IMG/VR virus record: IMGVR_UViG_3300048091_000424
DNA length: 64,000 bases
From: a virus
Taxonomy: Duplodnaviria; Heunggongvirae; Uroviricota; Caudoviricetes
Direction: 5' to 3' (one strand)
Shown: positions 6,450 to 49,930 of the stretch, piece after piece
How the letters are laid out: every line of letters begins with the position of its first letter
Position numbering within the stretch: position 1 is the first letter of the stretch
Program-made: the position numbers and the translations under genes
Notes under the pieces: model-generated
Told to the model about the DNA's origin: nothing
The model's database searches: none
Seen by the model: the letters and a program-made list of their open reading frames with translations, nothing else

Positions 6450-6597
6450 AACCCCAGAGAAGCCGGCAAGCGGGCCTCCTCAGCCACTCTCAGCGGCGCT
6501 GCGCAACAAATCCAAGCAGACTACCAAAAGAGCGACGAAGTCGCCTCAGAGCCACTACAAGGCGCTGATTGATTTCCAAAACTAACATTCAGACAAC

Positions 6598-6624
6598 AAA
6601 AAGCCGCTCCGTAGAGCGGCTTTG
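6598..6624 (-). terminator. terminator for the minus-strand membrane-protein gene
   Basis: aagccgctc-cgta-gagcggctt, with TTTTT on the minus strand. Confidence 0.6.
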
Positions 6625-6645
6625 GCAGTCCAGTTACCACCGGCG

Positions 6646-7413
6646 CTAATCGTGTTCGCCCTTAGTGTCACTGCCGTCAACGAACAACTGATACCGCTGA
6701 ATGATGGTGATGTTCAACGGCAGGCCCTTGGCCAGGCTTTCATCAAAATGACTCAGGGTGGATGGCGTGTACAGACCCTTGGTCTTTTCGAGGTACAGCG
6801 CCAGTTCTGCCCCGCTAATGTCTTTGACCAAGATCATGTTGATCAGTCGGTTAAATTCAAACACCTGCAGGGACAACAATCCGCTGACCACGACCACCCA
6901 GACCAACAGCATTACCGGAGCCGCCAATAGCACCGAAATCATCAAGAGGAACTGAATCAGCACGAACTTCGCAATGAAGAACAGGAACAAGCTGACTGAC
7001 ATTTTCTGCACATTCTTTTCGTCAAAGCCTTCCTTGTACAGCTTCACCAACTCCTGCCCCTGGAAGAGTGTGTAGATCAGCATCCCGAGGAAAGCAGGAA
7101 TCATCAATACCAGAATATTGGTCAGTTCAGTCCACGCCATCGAGCAGAACAACACCACCGCCGTGAGGCCCATCAACCCCACCAAACCTTTGCCAATCAG
7201 GTCGACATCGATCAGGCGCACCCGAGTCTCATTGATCGAGCGGCCAATAAGATCACTCAACACATGCTGAAAGTAGTCGATGTTCTTGTCGCGCACGCTC
7301 TGCAGCTGCGTGGCGGTCAGTGGCTGATTGTGTGGCATGAAGTGGTTGAAGCGGTTGCTCAGAATGAGGTCGAGCAGATAACCAACGAATAGCCGGTACA
7401 GAGATATCAGCAT
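6646..7413 (-). CDS. hypothetical polytopic membrane protein
   Basis: 255 aa with several long hydrophobic segments. Confidence 0.6.
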   Translation of the reverse strand: MLISLYRLFVGYLLDLILSNRFNHFMPHNQPLTATQLQSVRDKNIDYFQHVLSDLIGRSINETRVRLIDVDLIGKGLVGLMGLTAVVLFCSMAWTELTNILVLMIPAFLGMLIYTLFQGQELVKLYKEGFDEKNVQKMSVSLFLFFIAKFVLIQFLLMISVLLAAPVMLLVWVVVVSGLLSLQVFEFNRLINMILVKDISGAELALYLEKTKGLYTPSTLSHFDESLAKGLPLNITIIQRYQLFVDGSDTKGEHD

Positions 7414-7476
7414 GCTCTTGCTTTCCGTTTCGGGGGCGAATATGAATATCTTATCATGTGAAGATCGAAGGTATCT

Positions 7477-8361
7477 TCAAGATTCCAGTGAAAGTTCACC
7501 GATAAATTCGCGCCAGGCCACCTTGCCCACGGCATCGAATAACCTCAAGGCGTGACAGGCGTAGAGACCTGATGTTGAGAACGCATTAAGCTCAACGACC
7601 TTTGGCTCGCCGGCGAACAGGCCAACATCACAGGTGTACGCCAGGTCAACCTGCCACGGTAGTGCCGCGACCTGCTGTGCGACCTCAAGACACAGCTTAC
7701 TCACCACCGGATCAATACTGCGCTGCCCATTTACATGGTAGCGACTGCCGGTGACCACCTTCCCTTCGACAATGAAGAACCGGTATTCAGCGCGAATGCT
7801 TTGGGCTGGCGCAATCAATACACGGGTATCGTCTGTGACCGAGGTCAGTTGGCGAAGACTGTTGATCTCAACCCCTGCGGTTTCCTGTTCCAGGCATAGC
7901 CCGGTGAACGTCTTTCCTCCTGAGTCAGGTCGGACAAACAGGCGGCTGTCGCCGAAGAGTCGATATATCTGATCACGCCTGCGCACGAAATCACCGAACG
8001 GCAGGTACACCCCTTCTGCATTGCCCAGGAGCTCCAAGGGTAAGCGAGGCATGTAGTGGGAGCACGCCAGGCGATCCTTGGTGTAGTAGGCGCCGGGAAT
8101 GGCGTTTGAGTTACGCAGGCGCTGTTCAACGAACCCAATGCTGCCGTAGAGCACGATGCATTCATCGGCGCTGTAAGCTCGTAGGGGCTCTCTGTACGTA
8201 TCACGGCAGTACTCGGTCACCTCAACGGTGTAACCTAGCCTGCGCAGCGCCATGGGTAGCCTGACGTGGGGTGTGTCGGCGAGCATCCCCTGATCTATGA
8301 CAAAGGTGACCGAGCCACGGCCACGATTCGCCAAGGGTTGCGGCGGGATCACGGGGCGCAT
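7477..8361 (-). CDS. ATP-grasp domain protein
   Basis: ...EYRFFIVEGKVVTGSRY..., plus the C-terminal ...VVELNAFSTSGLY... segment, is typical of ATP-grasp ligases. Its start overlaps the stop of the small upstream ORF. Confidence 0.6.
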   Translation of the reverse strand: MRPVIPPQPLANRGRGSVTFVIDQGMLADTPHVRLPMALRRLGYTVEVTEYCRDTYREPLRAYSADECIVLYGSIGFVEQRLRNSNAIPGAYYTKDRLACSHYMPRLPLELLGNAEGVYLPFGDFVRRRDQIYRLFGDSRLFVRPDSGGKTFTGLCLEQETAGVEINSLRQLTSVTDDTRVLIAPAQSIRAEYRFFIVEGKVVTGSRYHVNGQRSIDPVVSKLCLEVAQQVAALPWQVDLAYTCDVGLFAGEPKVVELNAFSTSGLYACHALRLFDAVGKVAWREFIGELSLES

Positions 8362-8529
8362 TTTACAGCGTCCCGAGACACCCTATTCATTTCCGGCGTG
8401 GCAAACATCAGGCTGCCGACGAACACGACAGCCATTTCCTGACCCACACTGCAACCACCGGTGGCCGGCGTGCTACAGCCTGTGCAAGTCGCCAGAAACA
8501 GGCAACCCAAGAGAAAATGGCGCATCATG
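8350..8529 (-). CDS. small Cys-rich secreted/lipoprotein-like peptide (59 aa), not in the ORF track
   Basis: Reverse-strand ORF encoding MMRHFLLGCLFLATCTGCSTPATGGCSVGQEMAVVFVGSLMFATPEMNRVSRDAVKCAP*. It has a signal-like N-terminus with LLGC/LATC. It lies exactly between the PTH2-like gene and the ATP-grasp gene, with its stop at 8350..8352 next to the ATP-grasp start. Confidence 0.45.
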
Positions 8530-8534
8530 CCCCC

Positions 8535-9278
8535 TTAAATCAGCTTCAACCCAGCGGTTAGATGACTGATATTGTCCAGAAACTCGGGGCCGACCGCCAG
8601 CATTTTCACACCGTCCAGTTCAACCAGCGAGGTCGTCGAGCCCATGGCATCAAACTGACCCTGCAGGTCTAGCAATACCTCGTCCGTGGCCACACTCAAA
8701 GAAATCTTGGTGTACCCGTTTTTGATCCAGGAATCAAAAGCGATGTTGGTGTGGCTGGAGATCAGGAACTGCTTGAAGTCCGACTGCGTGTCCGGCTCCA
8801 GCATTTTTGCCATCTGACTCAGGCAACCGATGGCAGCCAGGGCGCAGACGGTTTCCTTCTTCATCGTTCTCGAACGGCTGAAAATGAAGTACTGCCGAGC
8901 TCTGCGTTCAGAGCCTTGTTCTGCGCAGTCGTATGGGGCGTCTTCCCATTTTTCGGAGAAGATCCCGTTGGCCGCGCAGGTGACGGTCTTAACGCCTTTG
9001 AATTCGGTCGCGCCGTTGTCAATGACCTTCTGACCGTCGTCGGCTTGGCCCATAAACGTCTGAACAGCAGCCTCCTCGACAACAAAGCCGAAGTCGACGT
9101 CTGGTGCAGCCAGGAAATTTGTGAGGGTGTTCATCTTCGCGTTGGACAAGCGCAGACCGTCTTTGCTCGGTCTCATGTGGCTGGCTAGCACTTTCATCGC
9201 GGCGTGGCCTGATTGGGAGGCCATCTTTCCCATGCGCATATTCAGATCGCTGCGCATTACGATCCTAAGCTTTCTCAT
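8535..9278 (-). CDS. PTH2-like (peptidyl-tRNA hydrolase 2 fold) domain protein with an insertion
   Basis: N-terminal KLRIVMRSDLNMRMGKMASQSGHAAMK resembles the PTH2 motif (VVRTDLxMGKGKIAAQCSHAA). The C-terminal end, ...TSLVELDGVKMLAVGP, resembles the PTH2 C-terminal strand. Confidence 0.5.
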   Translation of the reverse strand: MRKLRIVMRSDLNMRMGKMASQSGHAAMKVLASHMRPSKDGLRLSNAKMNTLTNFLAAPDVDFGFVVEEAAVQTFMGQADDGQKVIDNGATEFKGVKTVTCAANGIFSEKWEDAPYDCAEQGSERRARQYFIFSRSRTMKKETVCALAAIGCLSQMAKMLEPDTQSDFKQFLISSHTNIAFDSWIKNGYTKISLSVATDEVLLDLQGQFDAMGSTTSLVELDGVKMLAVGPEFLDNISHLTAGLKLI

Positions 9279-9411
9279 TTTTTCCGTATCAGGTGAAGTG
9301 CATCGCCGGTCATTCCGAGCGACTTAAGGCTGGCAATTTATCATCAATATTATATAACTGCAAGCGTTGCCTGCAGTTTCTCCAGGTTTTGTTGTGGGTA
9401 ATCACCTGACT

Positions 9412-9819
9412 CTACTCGATTGGCTTGGGCTTGGGCTTGGGTTTTGGCTTGCGCTTGGGCGTGCGTTCCTCACGTAGGTGATATTTCAAGTCCGTTTGGC
9501 GAGCGGCCACCAGCGCTGACAAAATTTCGGCATAGGTAAGTTTGTACTCGGTAATCACATCAACCAATTCATCGCCGACCTTCGTCGCCACGCTGGGCAG
9601 GGTAAATGTGGTTTTATCGAGGTCTTTCCAGGCGCTGCAAGCGTTCTTGATCGATAGATCATCGATGGAGGCGAGAATCCAAAACCGTTCAATCTGGTTA
9701 GAGATCATATACCCCTGATCGTAAGTCTCGACTTCCTTGATAGCCATGGCCTCTGCCCACTTCAAGCCGAAAATGCCGGAGGCCCGACTATGCAATCTTA
9801 TCCGTGAGTCAATTTCCAT
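9412..9819 (-). CDS. hypothetical protein with C-terminal (KP)n tail
   Basis: Ends ...KRKPKPKPKPKPIE. The tail is encoded by a ggcttg hexanucleotide tandem repeat. Confidence 0.5.
   Translation of the reverse strand: MEIDSRIRLHSRASGIFGLKWAEAMAIKEVETYDQGYMISNQIERFWILASIDDLSIKNACSAWKDLDKTTFTLPSVATKVGDELVDVITEYKLTYAEILSALVAARQTDLKYHLREERTPKRKPKPKPKPKPIE
9421..9466. repeat. hexanucleotide tandem repeat (ggcttg-like, about 7 units) encoding the KP tail
   Basis: ggcttgggcttgggcttgggttttggcttgcgcttgggcgtgcg. Confidence 0.7.
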
Positions 9820-9950
9820 CGAGTTCTTCCGCGTGAGTTATGAGGTGGACTGTATGGTCGAATTGCCATCAAGTATTCAGACAAAATGCCGGGAAATCAA
9901 CCACGACTCAACCGTCACCCCCTACCAGCACCGCTCCACTGATACAGAAA

Positions 9951-9977
9951 ACAAAAAAGCACCCCGAGAGGTGCTTT
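9951..9977 (-). terminator. rho-independent terminator of the CpxP-like gene
   Basis: aagcacc-ccgaga-ggtgctt, with TTTTTT on the minus strand. Confidence 0.7.
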
Positions 9978-9996
9978 GGCTGAAGCGATGCCGGCC

Positions 9997-10389
9997 TTAC
10001 TGCTCAGGGCTGAGCGCTTTGGCCTTTTCAGCTTCCGATTTGTGCCTCATATAGGCGCTGGCCGCCTTGCTTTGCTGCTCGGGCGTGAGCATGCCCATGA
10101 CCCTGGTCTGGCGCTTTTTGGCGGCGTCCATATGCTCCTGGTTCATCGCAGCCTTGTCGTTGTCCGACAGCCTGCTAAGGTAGCGCATGTTAATTTCGTA
10201 GTGCGCCCGCATCTCTTCCTGGGTGGCGTCACTCAGAATCGAGGTTTGGTCATTGCTTAAACCCAGCTCTTGCTGAGCCTGCTGCACCATCTGAGCCGGG
10301 CTCGGAGCCCCGCCCTGGCCACCTTGGGCGGCCAACGCCAAGGACGGGACAGCCATGGACAGTGCAACGGCAAGCAGAACATTTTTCAT
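9997..10389 (-). CDS. periplasmic CpxP/Spy-family (LTXXQ-type) protein
   Basis: Signal peptide MKNVLLAVALSMAVPSLALA. Helical Gln/Glu-rich body carrying the LSNDQ and LTPEQ motifs. Confidence 0.65.
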   Translation of the reverse strand: MKNVLLAVALSMAVPSLALAAQGGQGGAPSPAQMVQQAQQELGLSNDQTSILSDATQEEMRAHYEINMRYLSRLSDNDKAAMNQEHMDAAKKRQTRVMGMLTPEQQSKAASAYMRHKSEAEKAKALSPEQ

Positions 10390-10594
10390 GAAATACTCCT
10401 CAATGAATGTTGATCAATATGCTAGTCAGCATCTTCAATCGGTTCAAATGGTTAGATGTAAACGTTCGGTAAATTAAACACTGACGGGCAAAAACATTGT
10501 TTACAAATTGACAAAAGCATCATAGTATTTAGCCATCAACGTGCACCGAGAGATCATCGTGATCAACCCTGTCGTCGCCAAGGAAGCCAGCCCT

Positions 10595-15433: not shown

Positions 15434-16462
15434 ATGAACACCCAATACCTTTTTGATGCCGAACAGTTCCGCGACGCCGTGTTCAAACGGGATCGACGTG
15501 TCTGTGTGTTTTGCTCGGCACCGGCTGAATCAGCCGCACACATCCTGGAATCCCAGCTGTGGGACGACGGCGGCCACTACCTGCAAAATGGCGCCAGCGT
15601 CTGCAGAGAGCACCGACTCGCTTTTGAAATGACACATCTGTTGCCTAAGCAAATTCGGATTGCTGCTCGTATCCCGGAAATACTGGTACCTCAGGACTAC
15701 TTTCCGACCACGCCCTATGACCACTGGGGCAACGAGATTTTGCACAATGGAATGCGTCTGCGCGGTGAGCTGTTTCTCGATGATAATGTCCAGCAGCTAC
15801 TGAGCCAGGGCCGCGTACTGGATCAGTTCACCTGGCAGGTGAAGTACCCAACCACCCCTCACCTACCATGGTCAGAAGGGATTCAGCGGGATGACCGCCT
15901 TCTGCGTGACGTGCTTCACTTCCTGGGTAAGCGCGTCGTCGTCACAATGAAGATGGATGGCGAAAACACCTCGCTTTACAGTGACTACATCCACGCTCGT
16001 TCGCTGGATTCAAGGCACCACGAATCTCGTGACTGGGTGAAAAACTTCTGGGCCAGATTCAAATGGCAAATCCCTGAAGGTTGGAGGATCTGCGGTGAAA
16101 ACCTGTTTGCCCAGCACTCGATCCGGTACAACGATCTGGTGAGCTACTTCAATGGCTTCTCGATCTGGAACGAACGCAACAAGGCGTTGGACTGGGATGA
16201 CACCCTGGGCTACTTCGACATCCTTGGGATCACCCCGGTCGAGGAAATCTACCGTGGCGTCTTTGACCAGAAGTTGATCCACACAGCCTACCTGGAAAAG
16301 TCAAAAGGCAAGGTGTGCGAAGGCTATGTCGTACGCGTGGAGGACGAGTTCGACTTCCGAGATTTCCGCCGTTCGGTGGCCAAGTTTGTCCGCAAAGACC
16401 ATGTGCAAACCAAAGATCACTGGATGACCAGTGAGATCATCCCCAACAAGCTGAAAGGTTGA
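15434..16462 (+). CDS. HNH-like N-terminal domain fused to an RNA-ligase-family nucleotidyltransferase
   Basis: CVFC...H...N..CREH is HNH-like. VVVTMKMDGENTSLY is motif I (KxDGxN). EGYVVR is motif IV. KFVRKDH is motif V. Confidence 0.6.
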   Translation: MNTQYLFDAEQFRDAVFKRDRRVCVFCSAPAESAAHILESQLWDDGGHYLQNGASVCREHRLAFEMTHLLPKQIRIAARIPEILVPQDYFPTTPYDHWGNEILHNGMRLRGELFLDDNVQQLLSQGRVLDQFTWQVKYPTTPHLPWSEGIQRDDRLLRDVLHFLGKRVVVTMKMDGENTSLYSDYIHARSLDSRHHESRDWVKNFWARFKWQIPEGWRICGENLFAQHSIRYNDLVSYFNGFSIWNERNKALDWDDTLGYFDILGITPVEEIYRGVFDQKLIHTAYLEKSKGKVCEGYVVRVEDEFDFRDFRRSVAKFVRKDHVQTKDHWMTSEIIPNKLKG

Positions 16463-17983: not shown

Positions 17984-18143
17984 ATCCTTTGAACTTGGGG
18001 TTTTCCACGTGCACAAGGATGAGCAGTGGATCACCTTCGAGGTCATTCAGGAGGATCTGAAGGGTCGCTGAGATACCGATGTGTATTATCTTGATTCCTG
18101 TATACAGCTAAACACAGAATAATATGAAATTCATATGAAGTTA

Positions 18144-18169
18144 ATAGGATAATAATATTATTATCCTAT
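18144..18169. promoter_or_regulatory. perfect 26-bp palindrome in an AT-rich leader (candidate operator)
   Basis: ataggataataat|attattatcctat. A second inverted repeat, atgtaaaaa-N6-tttttacat, lies nearby at 18231..18254. Confidence 0.35.
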
Positions 18170-18343
18170 GTATATCGAGTCATGAGTTACTAATTATCTT
18201 CAAGCTGATACTAGTGCAGTCATGGCTCTCGATGTAAAAATGTAAGTTTTTACATAGGATTAAAAAATATTATTTGATGTATTGACCTGCAAAAATCTCA
18301 TCATTACCATTTTATGAAGCTGAAGCTCATATAGGTAATCTTT

Positions 18344-33171: not shown

Positions 33172-33247
33172 TCCGTGATAGCTCAGTCGGTAGAGCATCG
33201 GACTGTTAATCCGAGTGTCCCTGGTTCGAGTCCAGGTCACGGAGCCA
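33172..33247 (+). tRNA. tRNA-Asn (GTT)
   Basis: Acceptor stem TCCGTGA/TCACGGA. Anticodon loop CTGTTAA. T-loop GGTTCGAGTCC. CCA encoded. Confidence 0.9.
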
Positions 33248-33259
33248 GCCTTACGCACT

Positions 33260-33346
33260 GCCCGAATGGCGAAACTGGTAGACGCATGGGACTTAAAATC
33301 CTCTGCTCGAAAGGGCGTCCCGGTTCGACTCCGGGTTCGGGCACCA
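33260..33346 (+). tRNA. tRNA-Leu (TAA), class II
   Basis: Acceptor GCCCGAA/TTCGGGC. Loop CTTAAAA. Long variable arm. Near-identical scaffold to E. coli Leu(UAA). Confidence 0.8.
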
Positions 33347-33356
33347 AGAATTCAAA

Positions 33357-33440
33357 GCCGAAGTGGTGGAATTGGTAGACGCGGCTGATTCAAAATCAGT
33401 TGCCTACGGCGTGCGGGTTCGAGTCCCGCCTTCGGCACCA
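33357..33440 (+). tRNA. tRNA-Leu (CAA), class II
   Basis: Acceptor GCCGAAG/CTTCGGC. Anticodon arm CTGA-TTCAAAA-TCAG. Confidence 0.9.
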
Positions 33441-33447
33441 AACAAGA

Positions 33448-33476
33448 AAGGCCCAGCATATGTCTGGGCCTTTTTC
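33448..33476 (+). terminator. rho-independent terminator after the tRNA operon
   Basis: aaggcccag-catatgt-ctgggcctt, then ttttt. Confidence 0.75.
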
Positions 33477-33741
33477 ATTTTACTGCGCCCTGGATGTCGT
33501 CATCATGAAACGCCTGTTTAGTCTGTTGTCCGAGCTTACGCGCCCTGCCCCACAACCAAACCTGGAAGGTCGCATCGAACCTACCGTGCCACGGCACATA
33601 GCAGCCTCACCCTTCGAAATGGCCTCAGATGAGCTGGCCAGAGATGGCGCCCGTCGCTTCAGCAATATCGATCAATTACGCGACAGAGTGAAGGGAACGC
33701 TTAGTCCCAATAATTAATTTCAAATATTTTTAAAATTGCTG

Positions 33742-33771
33742 TTGACAGTGTTTCAGGATTAGTTCTATCTT
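33742..33771 (+). promoter_or_regulatory. sigma70-like promoter upstream of sORF1, with an AT-rich UP-like tract
   Basis: TTGACA, a 17-18-nt spacer, then TATCTT. Confidence 0.4.
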
Positions 33772-33803
33772 AGCTACATCACTAGTTCAACCGAGTTTTT
33801 GAC

Positions 33804-33896
33804 ATGACCACTTTCACTCAACGCGATGATGCACGGCAGCAGGACGAACGTCCTGATATCTGCTCGCGTGATGAACGCTCTGTCAAAACTTTCTAG
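33804..33896 (+). CDS. sORF1: 30-aa highly charged peptide (MTTFTQRDDARQQDERPDICSRDERSVKTF)
   Basis: Not in the ORF track. Paralogous to sORF2, sharing the M(T/A)T(F/Y)T start, the gacgaacgtc (DER) core and a single Cys. A strong terminator follows. Confidence 0.35.
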   Translation: MTTFTQRDDARQQDERPDICSRDERSVKTF

Positions 33897-33937
33897 CATC
33901 TCAGATTTGAGGGCTAGACGCCCTCTTCTGCTAAAAC

Positions 33938-33970
33938 AGCCGGGGGCCCAAACCTCCGGCTTTTTGTTTT
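33938..33970 (+). terminator. rho-independent terminator after sORF1
   Basis: 8-bp GC-rich stem gccggggg/cctccggc, followed by tttttgtttt. Confidence 0.75.
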
Positions 33971-33983
33971 AAGGATTTCTATC

Positions 33984-34061
33984 ATGGCTACTTACACTAA
34001 CTTCGCTGACCGGACTGATCGTGACGAACGTCGCGATGAGCGCGAGTGCCTGACTGTCTAG
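33984..34061 (+). CDS. sORF2: 25-aa highly charged peptide (MATYTNFADRTDRDERRDERECLTV)
   Basis: SD AAGGA lies 8 nt upstream. Paralog of sORF1. Followed by a strong terminator. Confidence 0.4.
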   Translation: MATYTNFADRTDRDERRDERECLTV

Positions 34062-34097
34062 TGCCGTGATACGGGGCTAGAAGCCCCCAGACCGACG

Positions 34098-34128
34098 AAC
34101 CGGGGGCCATGGCTCCCGGTTTTTTTTG
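34098..34128 (+). terminator. rho-independent terminator after sORF2
   Basis: aaccggggg-ccatgg-ctcccggtt, followed by tttttttt. Confidence 0.75.
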
Positions 34129-34139
34129 AGTGTTATTTT

Positions 34140-34215
34140 GTCCCTCTCGTCTAATGGCTCAGGATATCTGGTTCTCAACCAGGTGATTGGGGTTCGAGTC
34201 CCCAGAGGGAAACCA
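34140..34215 (+). tRNA. tRNA-Glu-like (anticodon CTC) with a G1.A72 mismatch
   Basis: The scaffold GTCCCTCTCGTCTAATGGCTCAGGA...GGGGTTCGAGTCCCC is Glu-like. Anticodon loop TTCTCAA. 3' acceptor strand GAGGGAA pairs with 5' GTCCCTC except at 1:72. Confidence 0.5.
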
Positions 34216-34292
34216 ATTAGTGGTCATTGCCAGGTTAGAGGCGATGCCAGCAAGGAATAAAGCGCTCATTAAGGTGAGTGTCAAGTTTACAA

Positions 34293-34368
34293 GGCCCGTT
34301 AGCCAAGTTGGAAAGGTACGTGACTGTCTATCACGCATGCAGGGGTTCGAGCCCCCTACGGGTCGCCA
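34293..34368 (+). tRNA. atypical tRNA, anticodon GTC (Asp-like), class-II-like D-arm, copy 1
   Basis: Acceptor GGCCCGT/ACGGGTC. Anticodon arm CGTGA-CTGTCTA-TCACG (U at position 37). T-arm AGGGG-TTCGAGC-CCCCT. Confidence 0.5.
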
Positions 34369-34413
34369 CTTAGTTACACTTTTCGAAACTGAAAAGTGTG
34401 TTTTAAAAGTTAC

Positions 34414-34489
34414 GCTCCATTCGTCTAGCGGCCTAGGACGGAGGGTCTTCGCCCCTCTAACACCGGTTCGAATCCGGTATGGAGAACCA
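34414..34489 (+). tRNA. tRNA-Glu (TTC), copy 1 (G1.A72 mismatch)
   Basis: GCTCCATTCGTCTAGCGGCCTAGGACGGAGGG-TCTTCGC-CCCTC... Compensatory C2:G71 relative to copy 2, but 1:72 is G.A. Confidence 0.6.
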
Positions 34490-34529
34490 GTTATAGCTAC
34501 ACGTTTTATAAAGGTTTATAAGTTACAAA

Positions 34530-34604
34530 GGCCCGTTAGCCAAGTTGGAAAGGCATATGACTGTCTATCATACATCAGGGGTTCGAGCCCCCTACGGGTC
34601 GCCA
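34530..34604 (+). tRNA. atypical tRNA, anticodon GTC (Asp-like), copy 2
   Basis: Same as copy 1, with compensatory anticodon-stem changes (TATGA/TCATA versus CGTGA/TCACG). This argues the structure is under selection. Confidence 0.5.
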
Positions 34605-34652
34605 TTTAAGTTGCACTCTGATGCATTTCAAAGTGTTGGTTTTAATAGTTTT

Positions 34653-34728
34653 GTTCCATTCGTCTAGTGGCCTAGGACAGAGGGTCTTCACCCCTCAAAC
34701 GCCGGTTCGAGTCCGGTATGGAACTCCA
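34653..34728 (+). tRNA. tRNA-Glu (TTC), copy 2 (canonical)
   Basis: Acceptor GTTCCAT/ATGGAAC. Loop TCTTCAC. Perfect cloverleaf. Confidence 0.85.
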
Positions 34729-34812
34729 ATTTTGTTCGTTGTGTGGAGTAATTTCTGTGTCGGCAATCGAAACATAGACACAATTAAAGCTGTCACTTTG
34801 GACACAAAACAC

Positions 34813-34890
34813 GGTTTGTTAGCTCAGCTGGATATGAGCGCCGGCTTGTCACGCCGGAGGTCGCGGGTTCGAGCCCCGTACAAACCGCCA
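34813..34890 (+). tRNA. tRNA-Asp (GTC), canonical
   Basis: Acceptor GGTTTGT/ACAAACC. Anticodon arm CCGGC-TTGTCAC-GCCGG. Confidence 0.85.
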
Positions 34891-34896
34891 CTTACC

Positions 34897-34973
34897 GCTT
34901 CTGTAGCTCAACTGGATAGAGCAGCGCCCTACGAAGGCGAAGGTTAGAGGTTCGAGCCCTCTCAGAAGCACCA
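34897..34973 (+). tRNA. tRNA-Arg (ACG)
   Basis: Acceptor GCTTCTG/CAGAAGC. Loop CTACGAA. Scaffold like E. coli Arg(ACG). Confidence 0.85.
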
Positions 34974-35004
34974 TTTCAAACGCCTGGCTCACCCCAGACG
35001 ATCT

Positions 35005-35083
35005 ACCCCAGTCGCCAAACTGGATTAAGGCACCGGTCTTCGAAACCGGTCATGTGCAAGTTCGAATCTTGCCTGGGGTACCA
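35005..35083 (+). tRNA. tRNA-like, anticodon TCG (Arg-like), atypical D-arm
   Basis: Acceptor ACCCCAG/CTGGGGT. Anticodon arm CCGGT-CTTCGAA-ACCGG. T-arm GCAAG-TTCGAAT-CTTGC. The 7-nt 5' acceptor string is duplicated 7 nt upstream. Confidence 0.5.
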
Positions 35084-42872: not shown

Positions 42873-44021
42873 TTACGCCACGCCCACGGCTTCACTCACT
42901 CCCGCCGTCGGCAACATTACCGCTTTCGACCACGAGAACAATCGGCGTCCGATCTGAGGCGTCGGCAACTCGCCAATGCTCTGACCTTTAGACGCGTGCA
43001 GCTTCAACCACAGCCACGGCAGGTTAACCCCGCACAGCAGACTAAGGCCCAGGCCATCACTGAAGCGTGGGCTGGCGCTGAGCACCTTACAGCGACCCTC
43101 GCTGTCGAGCTTGAATTTGGCGTTGAACAAACCGGAAAATCCAAATTCACGGACGATTATTTGCAGCTGACGGCGCAGCTCCGGGTTGTCGACAATTAAC
43201 TCACCCTCCTCCTCGCCTTCCGGTTTCTGGCGAGCGACGTAGGTCACCAGCTGACCTTTCCACGCCAGGCAATCCACGGAGAATTCTTGGCCAGGCAGGT
43301 ACTCCATCACGATCCAGTTATTGGCGGCGCCGGCTTTGATCGAAGCCTGGTGCGCCAGCAAACCGAAATCAGGGAAGCGCATGACCTTGTTCTCGGGAAA
43401 GAACAGTTGCTGGTGTGGATCAGGGTGGTCGTCGAAACGGTAGAACGCTTTGCCGAGTAGCCGATTGGACGGTTTTGCGCACACGGCTTTAAGTTCGTCC
43501 GGAACAGCCACCATGCGTGTTTTGATGGTCGCCACGCTGTCATTCAACTGGGTCTCATAGTCGTCGTTCCAGATCAGCCAGGCCGGCACCATGTCGCCAT
43601 AGTAGGCCTGCTCAAGCCGGTGGTAGAACTCAGCCTTAACGTCGAGCACCGCCAGTTCCTTTGGCGAGCAGCTGTACAGCAACTCCACGCCGATGGCCCG
43701 GAAGTCTTCACGGCGCTCGATCATCGCTGCATAGAAACGACTGACGACGATACAGTCGATGCCATGCTCGGCGGCATAGCCCAGGGCCCAGTCAGTGTAA
43801 TCCTGCGCCGAAATGCTCGAAGCTTCGACCGCGACCTGGTCAGCCAGGGTGAAACCGATGAAGTTCGGATTGTGGTGCGTCACATGGATTTGTTGCAGAA
43901 TACGCTCGCTTTCATGGAGCATCGACTCATGTTGCTTGATGGACTGAATGGCTTCGGCGATCACTGCCATTCCGTCGTTGAACCAGACCTTGAGCTTCAC
44001 GTACACCACACCCTGAGCCAT
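42873..44021 (-). CDS. ATP-grasp domain enzyme
   Basis: NWIVMEYLPGQEFSVD and flanking segments match the ATP-grasp large-domain pattern. Confidence 0.6.
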   Translation of the reverse strand: MAQGVVYVKLKVWFNDGMAVIAEAIQSIKQHESMLHESERILQQIHVTHHNPNFIGFTLADQVAVEASSISAQDYTDWALGYAAEHGIDCIVVSRFYAAMIERREDFRAIGVELLYSCSPKELAVLDVKAEFYHRLEQAYYGDMVPAWLIWNDDYETQLNDSVATIKTRMVAVPDELKAVCAKPSNRLLGKAFYRFDDHPDPHQQLFFPENKVMRFPDFGLLAHQASIKAGAANNWIVMEYLPGQEFSVDCLAWKGQLVTYVARQKPEGEEEGELIVDNPELRRQLQIIVREFGFSGLFNAKFKLDSEGRCKVLSASPRFSDGLGLSLLCGVNLPWLWLKLHASKGQSIGELPTPQIGRRLFSWSKAVMLPTAGVSEAVGVA

Positions 44022-48413: not shown

Positions 48414-49820
48414 TTAACGCCCTGGCCCGAAGTCAGTTTCCGGCTGCTCCTTGAGAAAGCGACTAACCGCATCGCGACGAGCTGTCCTCACCGCCGTCTT
48501 GGCAGCCTCCAGAATCAACGCCTTATCCGGTGTCCGGTTCCTTGCAATGGCCCGTGCCTCTTCCTTCGCCATGGTGGCCTGCATGATCGGGCCTGGCTTG
48601 ACCGAACTCACCGCTTCCATGGCGCTCAGCAGGTAAGCTCCCTGCAGATACGTTTCTGGCCTTTTGGTCGAACCATCCTTTTGACGAATACGTCGGCCAA
48701 AGTTATCCGCTGCGCACATCGTCGCCACATCCCCTAAAAAGGCCTTGTCGTGGCGCTGAATTCGATCAAGGTCAAGGCGCTCATATAGCGCCTGAAGGCC
48801 CTGGCGACCTGCTGACGAAATGCGGTGTACTTCTTGATGGGTCAACGCACATTTGTGCACAAAGTACTGGATTTCAGACGGCATCTTGATGCGGGCGGCC
48901 AGCGTGTCAAGAAGCCCCTCAAAACGTTCTACATTTTCGTGCCCATGGTGATGGCCACGAACGGAGCCGTCCGCGTACCACAGCAAATCGGCTGGTGTCT
49001 TGATCTTGCCCAGGTCATGGAGCAAAGCAGCCATGCGAATCCGCAGAGAGCTCGCCGTTGAATGGCCCGTCGTTAGCTTGGCCGCTTCATCGAGAACCAT
49101 CTTGGTATGGATCCAGACATCACCCTCGGCGTGGTAATCATCCCGCTGTGGAACGCCCTTCATCTGCTCCAGTTCAGGGAACAGGACTTTCAGCGCCCCA
49201 CAGGCATCCAGCACATCAAAATAGACGTGTGGGTTGGGTGTCAGCATCGCCTTCTCGGTTTCTTTCCAAATCCGTTCTGGCTTGATGTTGGGCTTGCCGC
49301 TCGGCGTCGTTGGATTGAGCATCCCTTTGGACGTCATCTCAGTCATCAGAGACATGGTCTCTGGCGCCACAGAGAAGTCGTACCTTGCCGCGAAGCGGGC
49401 TACGCGCAGAATGCGCAACGGATCCTCAGCAAAGCTCGGGCCGACATGCCGCAGCGTGCGATTTTGAAGGTCTTGTTGGCCGCCGTAGGGATCGAACACC
49501 GTTCCGTCATCCAGCTCGGCCATGGCGTTGATGGTGCAATCCCGGCGCCCAAGATCTTGCTCCAGCGTGATGCCTTCCCACTTGTACTTGAAGTCGTTGT
49601 AACCATCACCGGTGCTGATTTCCGAGCGGCCAAGGGCGTACTCGTCGCCGGTTTCTGGGTGCAGAAAGACCGGGAAATCCCCGCCCACCTGGGTAAAGCC
49701 GCGACTCAACATTGACTCCGGTGATTCGCCGATCACCACATAGTCGATATCCGTGGGCTCAAGGCCAAGCAGCCTATCCCGGACACAACCCCCCACTCTG
49801 TAGCACTTCTCAAATGTCAT
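48414..49820 (-). CDS. cca: CCA tRNA nucleotidyltransferase with HD domain
   Basis: GGCVRDRLLG...DIDYVV N-terminal pol-beta motif and a C-terminal HD region. SD GGGAGGA before ATG 49820. Confidence 0.85.
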   Translation of the reverse strand: MTFEKCYRVGGCVRDRLLGLEPTDIDYVVIGESPESMLSRGFTQVGGDFPVFLHPETGDEYALGRSEISTGDGYNDFKYKWEGITLEQDLGRRDCTINAMAELDDGTVFDPYGGQQDLQNRTLRHVGPSFAEDPLRILRVARFAARYDFSVAPETMSLMTEMTSKGMLNPTTPSGKPNIKPERIWKETEKAMLTPNPHVYFDVLDACGALKVLFPELEQMKGVPQRDDYHAEGDVWIHTKMVLDEAAKLTTGHSTASSLRIRMAALLHDLGKIKTPADLLWYADGSVRGHHHGHENVERFEGLLDTLAARIKMPSEIQYFVHKCALTHQEVHRISSAGRQGLQALYERLDLDRIQRHDKAFLGDVATMCAADNFGRRIRQKDGSTKRPETYLQGAYLLSAMEAVSSVKPGPIMQATMAKEEARAIARNRTPDKALILEAAKTAVRTARRDAVSRFLKEQPETDFGPGR

Positions 49821-49930
49821 AGGCCTATATCCTCCCTGACGGGTACCAAGTGCGTGTGTCTTACGCACGCGCTCACATGTTAAATTCAAGTATGACTCAC
49901 GCCGCAACGGCAAAGAAGAGATTCTCGTGC

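Follow-up and report, generated by a model that had tools for sequence, protein, structure and literature searches.

What does a small, Cys-rich open reading frame (ORF) do between the genes for a peptidyl-tRNA hydrolase-like protein and an ATP-grasp ligase? In the window (the whole 64,000-nucleotide stretch of IMG/VR record IMGVR_UViG_3300048091_000424), three such genes follow one another on the minus strand. A small ORF immediately 5' of an ATP-grasp gene is also the arrangement of the graspetide clusters for microviridin (MdnA/B/C) and plesiocin (PsnA/B), and an initial annotation, made from the sequence alone, had read the locus as a graspetide-type RiPP system with a PTH2-fold accessory, with the fallback of a small lipoprotein that has nothing to do with the enzymes. 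The fallback is what the evidence fits. We favor, at a probability of about 0.6, the reading that the locus is an operon of four or five genes in an "informational" region of a megaplasmid, composed of a translation-maintenance block and a lineage-specific lipoprotein gene, and not a RiPP cluster.

All three ORFs exist in the order first described, with small corrections to their coordinates: a tandem PTH2 (peptidyl-tRNA hydrolase 2) protein of 247 amino acids (aa) (positions 8535 to 9278, minus strand), the small ORF (8349 to 8528 including its stop, minus strand; 59 aa from the first ATG), and an R2K-clade ATP-grasp enzyme of 294 aa (7477 to 8361, minus strand). They are followed on the same strand by a gene for a 255-aa multi-pass membrane protein (6646 to 7413), with hydrophobic stretches at residues 70 to 119 and 135 to 188 and no match in a Pfam search. 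The proposal that these genes form one operon holds, because they lie tightly packed and overlapping on one strand and because a strong terminator-like hairpin (6623 to 6600, minus strand; a 10-bp stem with 6 G-C pairs and a T-rich tail) occurs only after the 255-aa gene, its last member, with none between the preceding genes. A 135-aa gene (9412 to 9819, minus strand), 133 nucleotides (nt) upstream of PTH2 and itself preceded by a terminator-like site at 9977 to 9956, is possibly the first of the transcription unit.

The 247-aa protein matches the PTH2 family in both profile and fold, and as a whole it hits Pfam PTH2 with an E value of 4.8e-16 over two stretches. Where PTH2-like motifs had been noted at its two ends, the likeness to PTH2 stands, but the protein actually comprises two complete PTH2 domains, each scoring above the Pfam cut-off of 23 bits: the N-terminal half alone reaches 37.3 bits (residues 3 to 102 aligned to profile positions 2 to 95), and the C-terminal half alone reaches 26.9 bits (profile positions 3 to 114 of 115 covered). 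The tandem architecture rests on these independent matches and not on the hhalign repeat test of one half against the other, which was weak (E = 0.12) with the register correct.

The first domain (about residues 1 to 110; 8949 to 9278, minus strand) is predicted to be active, given its Pfam match and motifs. Its invariant positions are R9, D11, G17-K18, Q22, H25, and D87-x-G89-x-T91-E92-F93, among which K18, H25, D87, G89, T91, and E92 do not vary across 11 sequences, and its residues 2 to 35 align to residues 2 to 35 of Sulfolobus solfataricus Pth2 (1xty). The "GK" Lys and the "DxGxTE" Asp correspond to Lys18 and Asp86 of S. solfataricus Pth2, which we take to be catalytic. In the second domain (about residues 125 to 247; 8538 to 8906, minus strand), an ungapped register puts V144 and G151 at the positions of K18 and H25 in the N-terminal half, and the Asp of "DxGxTE" is variable, suggesting that this domain is degenerate and has lost its catalytic positions. 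The protein misses the NCBIfam equivalog cut-offs (48.8 versus 126 bits for NF003314 and 42.9 versus 82 bits for TIGR00283) and therefore represents a divergent PTH2 subfamily. It shares with known PTH2 proteins (PF01981; archaeal and eukaryotic Pth2, also present in jumbo phages) the family match of both halves and, in the N-terminal half, the GK...H and DxGxTE motifs; it differs in joining two domains in one chain of about 245 aa, whereas known PTH2 proteins have about 115 to 120 aa, and in having a second domain that appears to lack the catalytic positions. We saw the long form on giant Pseudomonas and Vibrio plasmids and otherwise only on a few contigs of low GC content or from Flavobacteriaceae, and the fused, half-degenerate double PTH2 seems to mark plasmids of about 1 Mb. 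We consider the tandem PTH2, along with its loose link to R2K, to be modestly new.

The ATP-grasp enzyme matches Pfam R2K_2 (E = 6.5e-16; 59 bits against a cut-off of 26.2) and R2K_3 (E = 1.7e-15; 58 bits against a cut-off of 26.3), and all 61 of its 61 homologues carry both assignments. Its best structural matches are LysX, ArgX, and RimK. The enzyme belongs to the R2K clade, the Cdc123-related and predicted protein-modifying ligases, and not to the graspetide ligases. Cdc123 is an essential assembly factor of eukaryotic translation initiation; we know of no substrate assigned to a bacterial R2K ATP-grasp enzyme. Among the homologues, R144, K150, and E257 are invariant and N259 is nearly so, residues that we mapped onto the R2K motifs by eye and not through the alignment in the published figure. 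With that clade (Cdc123, R2K.2/DUF4343, and R2K.3), as described by Burroughs et al. in 2015 (PMC4431377), the enzyme would, on this mapping, share a basic residue in a strand followed by a Lys six residues downstream (R144 and K150 here). The clade is described with an "absolutely conserved lysine" in that strand, where our mapping places an invariant Arg, and the ExN motif (E257 and N259) has the standard ATP-grasp form, while R2K.3 has ExGD (PMC4431377). The R2K family also occurs in jumbo phages.

The small gene, which is absent from an ORF track with a 60-aa cut-off, is a real 58-aa gene of the kind that such standard cut-offs overlook: it is under purifying selection, has a conserved ribosome-binding site, and overlaps the start of the ATP-grasp gene. 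The originally described 59-aa ORF is thus genuine, but its coordinates (8350 to 8529) were off by one, and a product of 58 aa is likelier, starting at the second ATG (8525 to 8523) and giving a gene at 8349 to 8525 on the minus strand. A Shine-Dalgarno-like GGGGG (8534 to 8530, minus strand) directly follows the PTH2 stop codon; relatives start at the aligned codon, four of them (L003, L014, L010, and L013) also with a purine-rich box 4 to 6 nt 5' of it, and gene callers run on the source contig give 58 aa. In place of the reported 6-nt spacer before the ATP-grasp ATG, the TGA stop (8351 to 8349) lies inside the ATP-grasp ORF, with 7 nt between ATG and TGA; this 13-nt overlap indicates translational coupling. 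The small ORF is open in seven nonidentical relatives, with Nei-Gojobori dN/dS values of 0.05 to 0.27, versus 0.07 to 0.22 for the genes on both sides; between the window and L003, dN/dS is 0.115, with 22 synonymous and 12 nonsynonymous differences.

The product is a putative lipoprotein. Bacterial lipoproteins, the substrates of SPase II, are recognized by a basic n-region, a hydrophobic h-region, and a lipobox, [LVI][ASTVI][GAS]C, no later than about residue 35. The putative signal peptide (residues 1 to 16; 8478 to 8525, minus strand) consists of MRH, a hydrophobic core, and C-T-G before the lipobox Cys, with which, according to the family alignment, the predicted mature protein of 42 aa begins (8352 to 8477, minus strand; Ser at +2). 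Canonical lipoboxes occur at the aligned position in relatives, as ISGC and LSGC (L010, L013, and L018), LSGC (P0087), and LSAC (P0088). The copies in the window, L003, L014, and L017 read C-T/A-G-C; a Cys occupies -3, and at that lipobox Cys the strict PROSITE-like pattern fails. The description of a lipobox-like start with four further Cys gives the correct total of five in the window's protein, but just three are conserved among homologues: the lipobox Cys, the one at +9, and the third residue from the C terminus.

When we asked whether the three genes co-occur elsewhere, PTH2 and R2K proved to be adjacent in the megaplasmid clade, but the small gene was confined to the closest relatives. 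It is present in L017, L003, L014, L010 to L013, and L018, all of them loci whose PTH2 is at least 69% identical to that of the window and always in exactly this position, and it is absent from L004, L015, L184, L006, L008, L186, L189, L188, L181, the phage loci, and all R2K loci at a greater distance. In three of the loci that lack it (L004, L015, and L184), PTH2 is joined directly to R2K at a distance of 13 to 38 nt; conversely, in L010 to L012, an insertion interrupts R2K but leaves PTH2 and the small gene intact. A family HMM, searched over every ORF of 30 aa or longer in 190 loci, recovered the small gene at its known position only, with no relocated copy. The protein family amounts to only four clusters among 1.84 billion (1.84e9) representatives, and its most distant homologue, P0087, accession WP_202940452.1, comes from a 971-kb Pseudomonas fluorescens contig and found no match in PLSDB by tblastn. 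Another cluster member, the 388-aa P0090, was set aside since it looks like an IS transposase and is probably a clustering artifact.

The element that carries the operon belongs to a family of Pseudomonas megaplasmids of ~1 Mb with jumbo-phage-like content. Besides 11 tRNAs, the window encodes an RNA ligase, a CCA-adding enzyme, a sigma factor, and a dCTP deaminase. The plasmids related to it measure 0.95 to 1.17 Mb, and it groups with pPL1, pPLMAXa, and a P. serbica plasmid. The element is plasmid-like and not a known phage: a megablast search of positions 6500 to 10500 against the phage collection and a single-protein IMG/VR scan with the ATP-grasp enzyme both found nothing. Its annotation and typing are those of a plasmid, MPF_I is present in its relative pBASL58, and a nonexhaustive look at structural genes identified no capsid or terminase gene in the window. 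The ~1-Mb Pseudomonas megaplasmid family of pMPPla107 and pBASL58 has been described before (PMC6482414). These giant Pseudomonas plasmids likewise have tRNAs, a long PTH2 (~32% identity), and an R2K ATP-grasp enzyme (~44% identity), but nucleotide similarity to the window is limited to a tRNA-sized stretch and, unlike in the window, their PTH2 and R2K genes are more than 300 kb apart. In jumbo phages, PTH2 has been read as recycling tRNAs and rescuing ribosomes, and R2K as modifying host proteins (PMC7824862; PMC4431377). Plasmids of this kind bring tRNAs, an RNA ligase, and a CCA-adding enzyme of their own, which further suggests that giant plasmids keep up translation much like jumbo phages. 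A reading of the locus as a defense system was rejected, as six locus proteins gave no PADLOC match at an E value of ≤0.01.

We therefore picture the operon as follows, inferring the enzymatic substrates, the lipidation, the disulfide, and the envelope role. The N-terminal PTH2 domain would most likely hydrolyze the ester bond of peptidyl- or N-acyl-aminoacyl-tRNA and so recycle host and plasmid tRNAs, with the degenerate C-terminal domain probably serving as the built-in partner of a pseudo-dimer. The R2K enzyme, whose ATP and Mg site appears intact, would most likely tag a cytoplasmic protein with an amino acid or short peptide, the target possibly being a translation component, as predicted for the clade. 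Between the two, a small lineage-specific gene appears to have been inserted. Its product would be exported by Sec and then cleaved and lipidated at the lipobox Cys; the lipoprotein is probably directed to the outer membrane because it has Ser at +2, and a single disulfide, between Cys25 and Cys56 in the numbering of the 58-aa protein, probably holds the mature 42 aa together. The protein would work in the envelope, for example, in exclusion or receptor masking, and it would not be a substrate of the cytoplasmic ligase. IncP TrbK, which acts in entry exclusion, and phage T5 Llp, which blocks a receptor, are small envelope lipoproteins of mobile elements, and the small protein would resemble them in size (about 40 to 60 aa when mature), lipobox, Cys, and carriage by mobile elements; they differ in that no sequence similarity is detectable, and no transfer or receptor genes adjoin the gene here. 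In this sublineage, the small gene also serves as the upstream ORF for translational coupling of the ATP-grasp gene, and this coupling, together with the constant position of the ORF, could still mean a functional tie to the ATP-grasp enzyme within the sublineage.

A rival account makes the tandem PTH2 and the R2K enzyme a two-enzyme module acting on one substrate, with the small lipoprotein as a passenger; the ligase might, for instance, tag a translation component or tRNA-linked species with an aminoacyl or peptidyl group, which the hydrolase would then remove or edit. Across the Pseudomonas megaplasmid clade the two genes are always neighbors, even where PTH2 identity falls to 38 to 43%, but this adjacency sits within wider synteny. 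In the low-GC contigs, PTH2 and R2K are the only two genes in common with the whole 64-kb window; L008 has them side by side and divergent, whereas 1.25 kb separates them in L102 and 5.2 kb in L104. This proximity in an unrelated lineage hints at a shared function that two independent housekeeping genes would not explain. Such a link would be new, in that the R2K gene contexts reported in PMC4431377 are GNAT, ADP-ribosylglycohydrolase, and type VI secretion system (T6SS) toxins, with no PTH2 partner among them. Much of the distribution speaks against it, however. A distance of more than 300 kb separates PTH2 from R2K not only in pBASL58 and pMPPla107 but also in the FeN3W plasmid, and jumbo phages that have both genes keep them apart. 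A long PTH2 occurs with no R2K within 6 kb in L019, L020, L105, L110, and L122 (likewise in L103, where only ~0.8 kb upstream is covered) and on Vibrio megaplasmids with no R2K match; R2K occurs without PTH2 in L186, L189, and L188; and the disrupted R2K genes of L010 to L012 stand beside an intact PTH2. We thus regard a shared-substrate module as unlikely, at odds of roughly one in a handful, and hold somewhat less hope still for its fuller form, an unrecognized module of giant plasmids and other giant elements that marks a translation component or tRNA-linked species with an aminoacyl or peptidyl group and erases the mark again. If true, the latter would mean that the element controls or protects host translation and would provide the first substrate clue for the bacterial R2K relatives of Cdc123; the recurrence of PTH2-R2K proximity in two unrelated lineages is a lead, not proof.

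Another rival reading takes the small lipoprotein for the o-spanin-like lysis protein of a phage-like element. For this speak its small size, its predicted outer-membrane type, and its conserved Cys; the syntenic block also includes an M15 peptidase gene at a distance of about 5 kb, and the gene content of the window is jumbo-phage-like. Nonetheless, a lysis role is very improbable: the gene has no adjacent i-spanin-like partner, holin, or endolysin, its product has no match in PHROGs, and the plasmid typing, the MPF_I of pBASL58, and the nonexhaustive look for capsid and terminase genes described above all point away from a phage.

The graspetide reading, in which the small ORF encodes a precursor that the ATP-grasp enzyme macrocyclizes with PTH2 as a new accessory, is largely refuted and keeps only the slimmest chance. 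In its favor, the small ORF is directly 5' of, and translationally coupled to, the ATP-grasp gene, and lipoproteins do occur in some graspetide clusters, there as accessory proteins and not as precursors (PMC8939145). Graspetide precursors are recognized by a "Phhx(1,2)h"-type leader, often with GG, and by a core with conserved Thr/Ser and Asp/Glu (or Lys) (PMC8939145). Here, the small protein begins with a signal peptide and lipobox in place of a leader; neither the "Phhx(1,2)h" motif nor GG is conserved, with GG present only in window-type copies and TEGC, TQEC, TSDC, or AREC elsewhere; and the seven-member alignment has a single invariant Ser and a single invariant Asp in place of an array of donors and acceptors. 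The ligase is of the R2K clade and not of the MdnB/MdnC/PsnB type, and unlike in microviridin and plesiocin clusters, the two genes are not inherited together, since the small gene is missing from most loci with an orthologous R2K and persists where the ligase is broken (L010 to L012). The main value of this result is negative: a Cys-rich small ORF before an ATP-grasp gene is insufficient for a graspetide call, which requires that ligase clade, leader motifs, and co-inheritance fit, and none of these three does so here. The notion, drawn from the structural matches to LysX, ArgX, and RimK, that the short, Cys-rich protein is a LysW-like carrier whose C terminus is extended by the ATP-grasp enzyme was rejected as almost certainly wrong, because the conserved acidic C-terminal tail of LysW-type carriers, with Glu as its last residue, is absent (the proteins end in KCAP, SCSR, KCSL, GCNL, or GCSR), the N terminus bears an export signal, and the gene is not codistributed with the ATP-grasp gene.

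The genes on either side of the three have narrow distributions of their own. Syntenic homologues of the 255-aa membrane protein lie 3' of R2K in L003, L014, L004, L015, and L184, with weak similarity only in the distant ones; we discarded it as a conserved third partner, as its homology is confined to the megaplasmid clade (E values of 5e-7 to 7e-5 for distant members), and the same-sized neighbor in L008 is unrelated to it. At the upstream end, BLASTP gave no link between the window's 135-aa protein and the upstream proteins of L014, L010, L004, L015, and L184, which, at 133 to 157 aa, are related to one another; its sole detected homologue, 49% identical and 121 aa long, occupies the corresponding position in L003.

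The three genes lie in a run of five consecutive minus-strand ORFs, encoding in order a 135-aa protein (9412-9819), a 247-aa tandem peptidyl-tRNA hydrolase 2 (PTH2) protein (8535-9278), a small protein of 59 aa (8349-8528), a 294-aa ATP-grasp enzyme (7477-8361), and a 255-aa membrane protein (6646-7413). The one strong terminator-like hairpin in this run comes after the 255-aa gene (6623-6600), and a further one precedes the 135-aa gene (9977-9956), so these genes form one operon of four or five genes, the central three of which the initial annotation had already read as an operon. The three ORFs of that annotation stand, with minor corrections: it placed the small ORF one nucleotide off, at 8350..8529, and set its stop 6 nt before the ATP-grasp ATG; in fact, its TGA (8351-8349) falls inside the ATP-grasp ORF, with an ATG-to-TGA gap of 7 nt and an ORF overlap of 13 nt. 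A GGGGG box (8534-8530) stands directly 3' of the PTH2 stop codon, and translation of the small ORF likely begins at the second ATG (8525), giving 58 aa; homologues use the codon aligned with this ATG as their start, and the gene callers applied to the source contig give the same length. The 135-aa protein upstream of PTH2 has a (KP)5 repeat at its C-terminal end; the next gene (9997-10389, minus strand) encodes a 130-aa protein with a secretion-signal-like N-terminus that weakly resembles acid-shock protein Asr (E = 0.002, well short of the cut-off) in a profile match.

Over its full length, the 247-aa protein gives two separate Pfam PTH2 matches, and its halves, scored alone, each pass the gathering score and span almost the whole profile (37.3 bits for residues 1-115 and 26.9 bits for residues 116-247). 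The protein falls far under the NCBIfam equivalog cut-offs. An AlphaFold2 model built from an 11-sequence alignment has two alpha/beta halves (pLDDT 86.3, pTM 0.89). In the family alignment, R9, D11, G17-K18, Q22, H25, and D87-x-G-x-T-E-F of the N half are invariant, and residues 2-35 align one-to-one with Pth2 of S. solfataricus. In the C half, by an ungapped register, V144 and G151 take the places of the Lys and His, and the Asp varies. Archaeal Pth2 is dimeric, and from these residues we read the protein as a built-in pseudo-dimer in which a probably active N domain is joined to a degenerate one.

This long form is rare, with twelve clusters of 241 to 247 aa in a search of 5.8 billion proteins. 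It occurs on Pseudomonas megaplasmids, often as two paralogous copies, on Vibrio plasmids of 0.88 to 0.94 Mb (NZ_CP062152.1, NZ_CP097357.1, NZ_CP015514.1, and CP099927.1), on pMPPla107 (NZ_CP031226.1) and pBASL58 (NZ_CP032678.1), and on a Flavobacteriaceae contig and several low-GC contigs; the Vibrio and Pseudomonas plasmids of ~0.9 to 1 Mb that carry it are "non-mobilizable." The fusion of two PTH2 domains, one of them degenerate, is typical of giant plasmids and mildly new, and the tandem type may mark a broader class of such plasmids. Both pPL1 (NZ_CP143488.1) and pPLMAXa (NZ_CP064950.1, locus L020 at 765365-778066) have a second long paralogue, about 34% identical and far from the R2K gene, of which the single PTH2 of pMPPla107 and pBASL58 may be the orthologue.

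The ATP-grasp enzyme matches Pfam R2K_2 and R2K_3 (R2K being the Cdc123-related ATP-grasp clade) and phrog_7313 (E = 1.8e-40), a family common in jumbo phages; it has no match in NCBIfam and no sequence match among PDB chains at an E of ≤1. Across 30 homologues, R144, K150, E192, R194, D245, and E257 are invariant and N259 nearly so, which suggests an intact site for ATP and Mg. The window enzyme has an ExN motif, whereas R2K.3 has ExGD (PMC4431377). R2K.2 and R2K.3 are predicted to ligate peptides onto proteins in phage-host conflicts, and their reported neighbours include GNAT and ADP-ribosylglycohydrolase genes but never peptidyl-tRNA hydrolase (Burroughs et al., PMC4431377).

That PTH2 and R2K constitute a true two-enzyme module is unlikely. 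The two genes adjoin throughout the Pseudomonas megaplasmid clade, but there the adjacency is embedded in a wider synteny (sigma factor, 150-aa gene, PTH2, R2K, membrane protein, dCTP deaminase, and M15 peptidase). More telling are three low-GC contigs on which they are adjacent and divergent (L008, 23% GC), 1.25 kb apart (L102, 28% GC), or 5.2 kb apart (L104, 31% GC), and in whose flanks they are the sole genes with a homologue anywhere in the 64-kb window. Against this, more than 300 kb separates them in pBASL58, pMPPla107, and the FeN3W plasmid, and they lie apart in jumbo phages that have both. Long PTH2 genes also occur with no R2K within 6 kb (L019, L020, L105, L110, and L122; L103, ~0.8 kb upstream) and on Vibrio plasmids with no R2K match, and R2K occurs without PTH2 in L186, L188, and L189. 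The link is thus partly supported, not as an obligate pair but as a loose, recurrent proximity of a half-degenerate PTH2 to an R2K ATP-grasp, which is itself mildly new. Long PTH2 and/or R2K genes are found on very low-GC contigs of 1.04 Mb (L008), 1.54 Mb (L102), and 1.69 Mb (L189, 25% GC), with GatB and amidase genes nearby in L008; these contigs may be either small bacterial genomes or giant elements outside the chromosome.

The small ORF is a genuine gene, probably for a lipoprotein, and its distribution is narrow. Homologous ORFs occupy the same position in L017, L003, L014, L010-L013, and L018, with Nei-Gojobori dN/dS values of 0.05 to 0.27 (flanking genes, 0.07 to 0.22); the window and L003 give 0.115 (dS 0.85, dN 0.098). 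A profile search of 1.84 billion representatives recovered just four clusters, two of them distant, with textbook lipoboxes: LSGC in P0087 (P. fluorescens, 971-kb contig) and LSAC in P0088. In the family alignment, a basic n-region and a hydrophobic core lead up to the lipobox Cys, where a mature part of 42 aa begins. Position +2 of the mature part is Ser or Ala, another conserved Cys stands at +9, and the last conserved Cys is three residues from the end; a "VFVxSLxF...RxxxDAxxC" stretch is conserved as well. The other two cysteines counted in the initial annotation fall within the signal peptide, outside the conserved set. The lipobox in the window copy, with Cys at -3, does not satisfy a strict pattern, which makes lipidation probable rather than certain.

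The initial annotation favored a graspetide-type RiPP locus with the small ORF as precursor and kept an unrelated lipoprotein as its fallback; it is the fallback that is supported. On the co-occurrence check that the same annotation had proposed, the three genes are found together in one sub-clade alone, where PTH2 identity to the window copy is 69% or more. In L004, L015, and L184 (PTH2 38 to 43% and R2K 55 to 58% identical), a PTH2-to-R2K gap of 13 to 38 nt leaves no room for the small gene, the 420-nt spacer of L006 holds no homologue of it, and none of the 190 fetched loci has a copy elsewhere. In L010-L012, from three separate samples (PTH2 70% identical; the L010 contig end contains Nextera adapter sequence), R2K is cut after "RPDSGMKTFT," from about 5373 onward, by an insertion beginning with a TnpB/OrfB-like ORF (MKRQQAYKFRLEPTFEQ...), and the tandem PTH2 and small gene are intact. 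Graspetide precursors are marked by a "Phhx(1,2)h" leader, a GG motif, and conserved Thr/Ser plus Asp/Glu (PMC8939145); the small protein has no such leader, its GG motif is not conserved, and conserved Thr/Ser plus Asp/Glu are missing. The narrow co-occurrence, the small gene persisting beside a cut R2K, and the missing hallmarks leave the graspetide reading unsupported, and translational coupling is the sole demonstrable tie between the small gene and R2K. A LysW-like carrier reading falls too, since the C-terminus is not acidic.

The replicon is a giant plasmid, although the set of genes it carries is jumbo-phage-like. A megablast of region 6500-10500 against 50,697 phage records gave no close match, and the window shares 76 to 80% DNA identity with the 1,168,067-bp plasmid pPL1 of Pseudomonas silesiensis. 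The gene block recurs on pPLMAXa (949 kb), a P. serbica plasmid of 1.06 Mb, and metagenomic contigs of 0.95 to 1.13 Mb. Eleven tRNA genes cluster at 33172-35083 on the plus strand (Asn, two Leu, three Glu, three Asp-GTC, and two Arg). With an RNA ligase (15434-16462) and, on the minus strand, an HD-domain CCA-adding enzyme (48414-49913), they give a plasmid a tRNA maintenance set like that of a jumbo phage. The window further encodes a sigma-70-like factor, a dCTP deaminase, a NucA-type nuclease, and a second ATP-grasp unrelated to the R2K enzyme (42873-44021, minus strand; Pfam ATPgrasp_Ter, E = 2.5e-28).

Judging from sequence, the tandem PTH2 would recycle peptidyl- or N-acyl-aminoacyl-tRNA, a role in keeping with the tRNA array, RNA ligase, and CCA-adding enzyme nearby and with the tRNA-recycling interpretation of jumbo-phage PTH2 (PMC7824862). 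The R2K enzyme is predicted to use ATP to ligate an amino acid or peptide onto a cytoplasmic protein, and the small protein would be exported, lipidated, and probably disulfide bonded in the envelope, where, by analogy with other small lipoproteins of mobile elements, it may act in exclusion or receptor masking; six proteins of the locus match no PADLOC defence-system model at an E of ≤0.01.

Elsewhere in the window, five paralogous genes in tandem (21513-27514, plus strand) encode proteins of 373 to 400 aa with 21 to 37% pairwise identity, and the four scanned against Pfam have no match. GC content dips to 0.417 at 18001-20000, compared with about 0.53 in the rest of the window; an 807-aa ORF there (18344-20767, plus strand) has a weak AAA_22 match and nothing else, and this low-GC stretch may be a recent foreign insertion.
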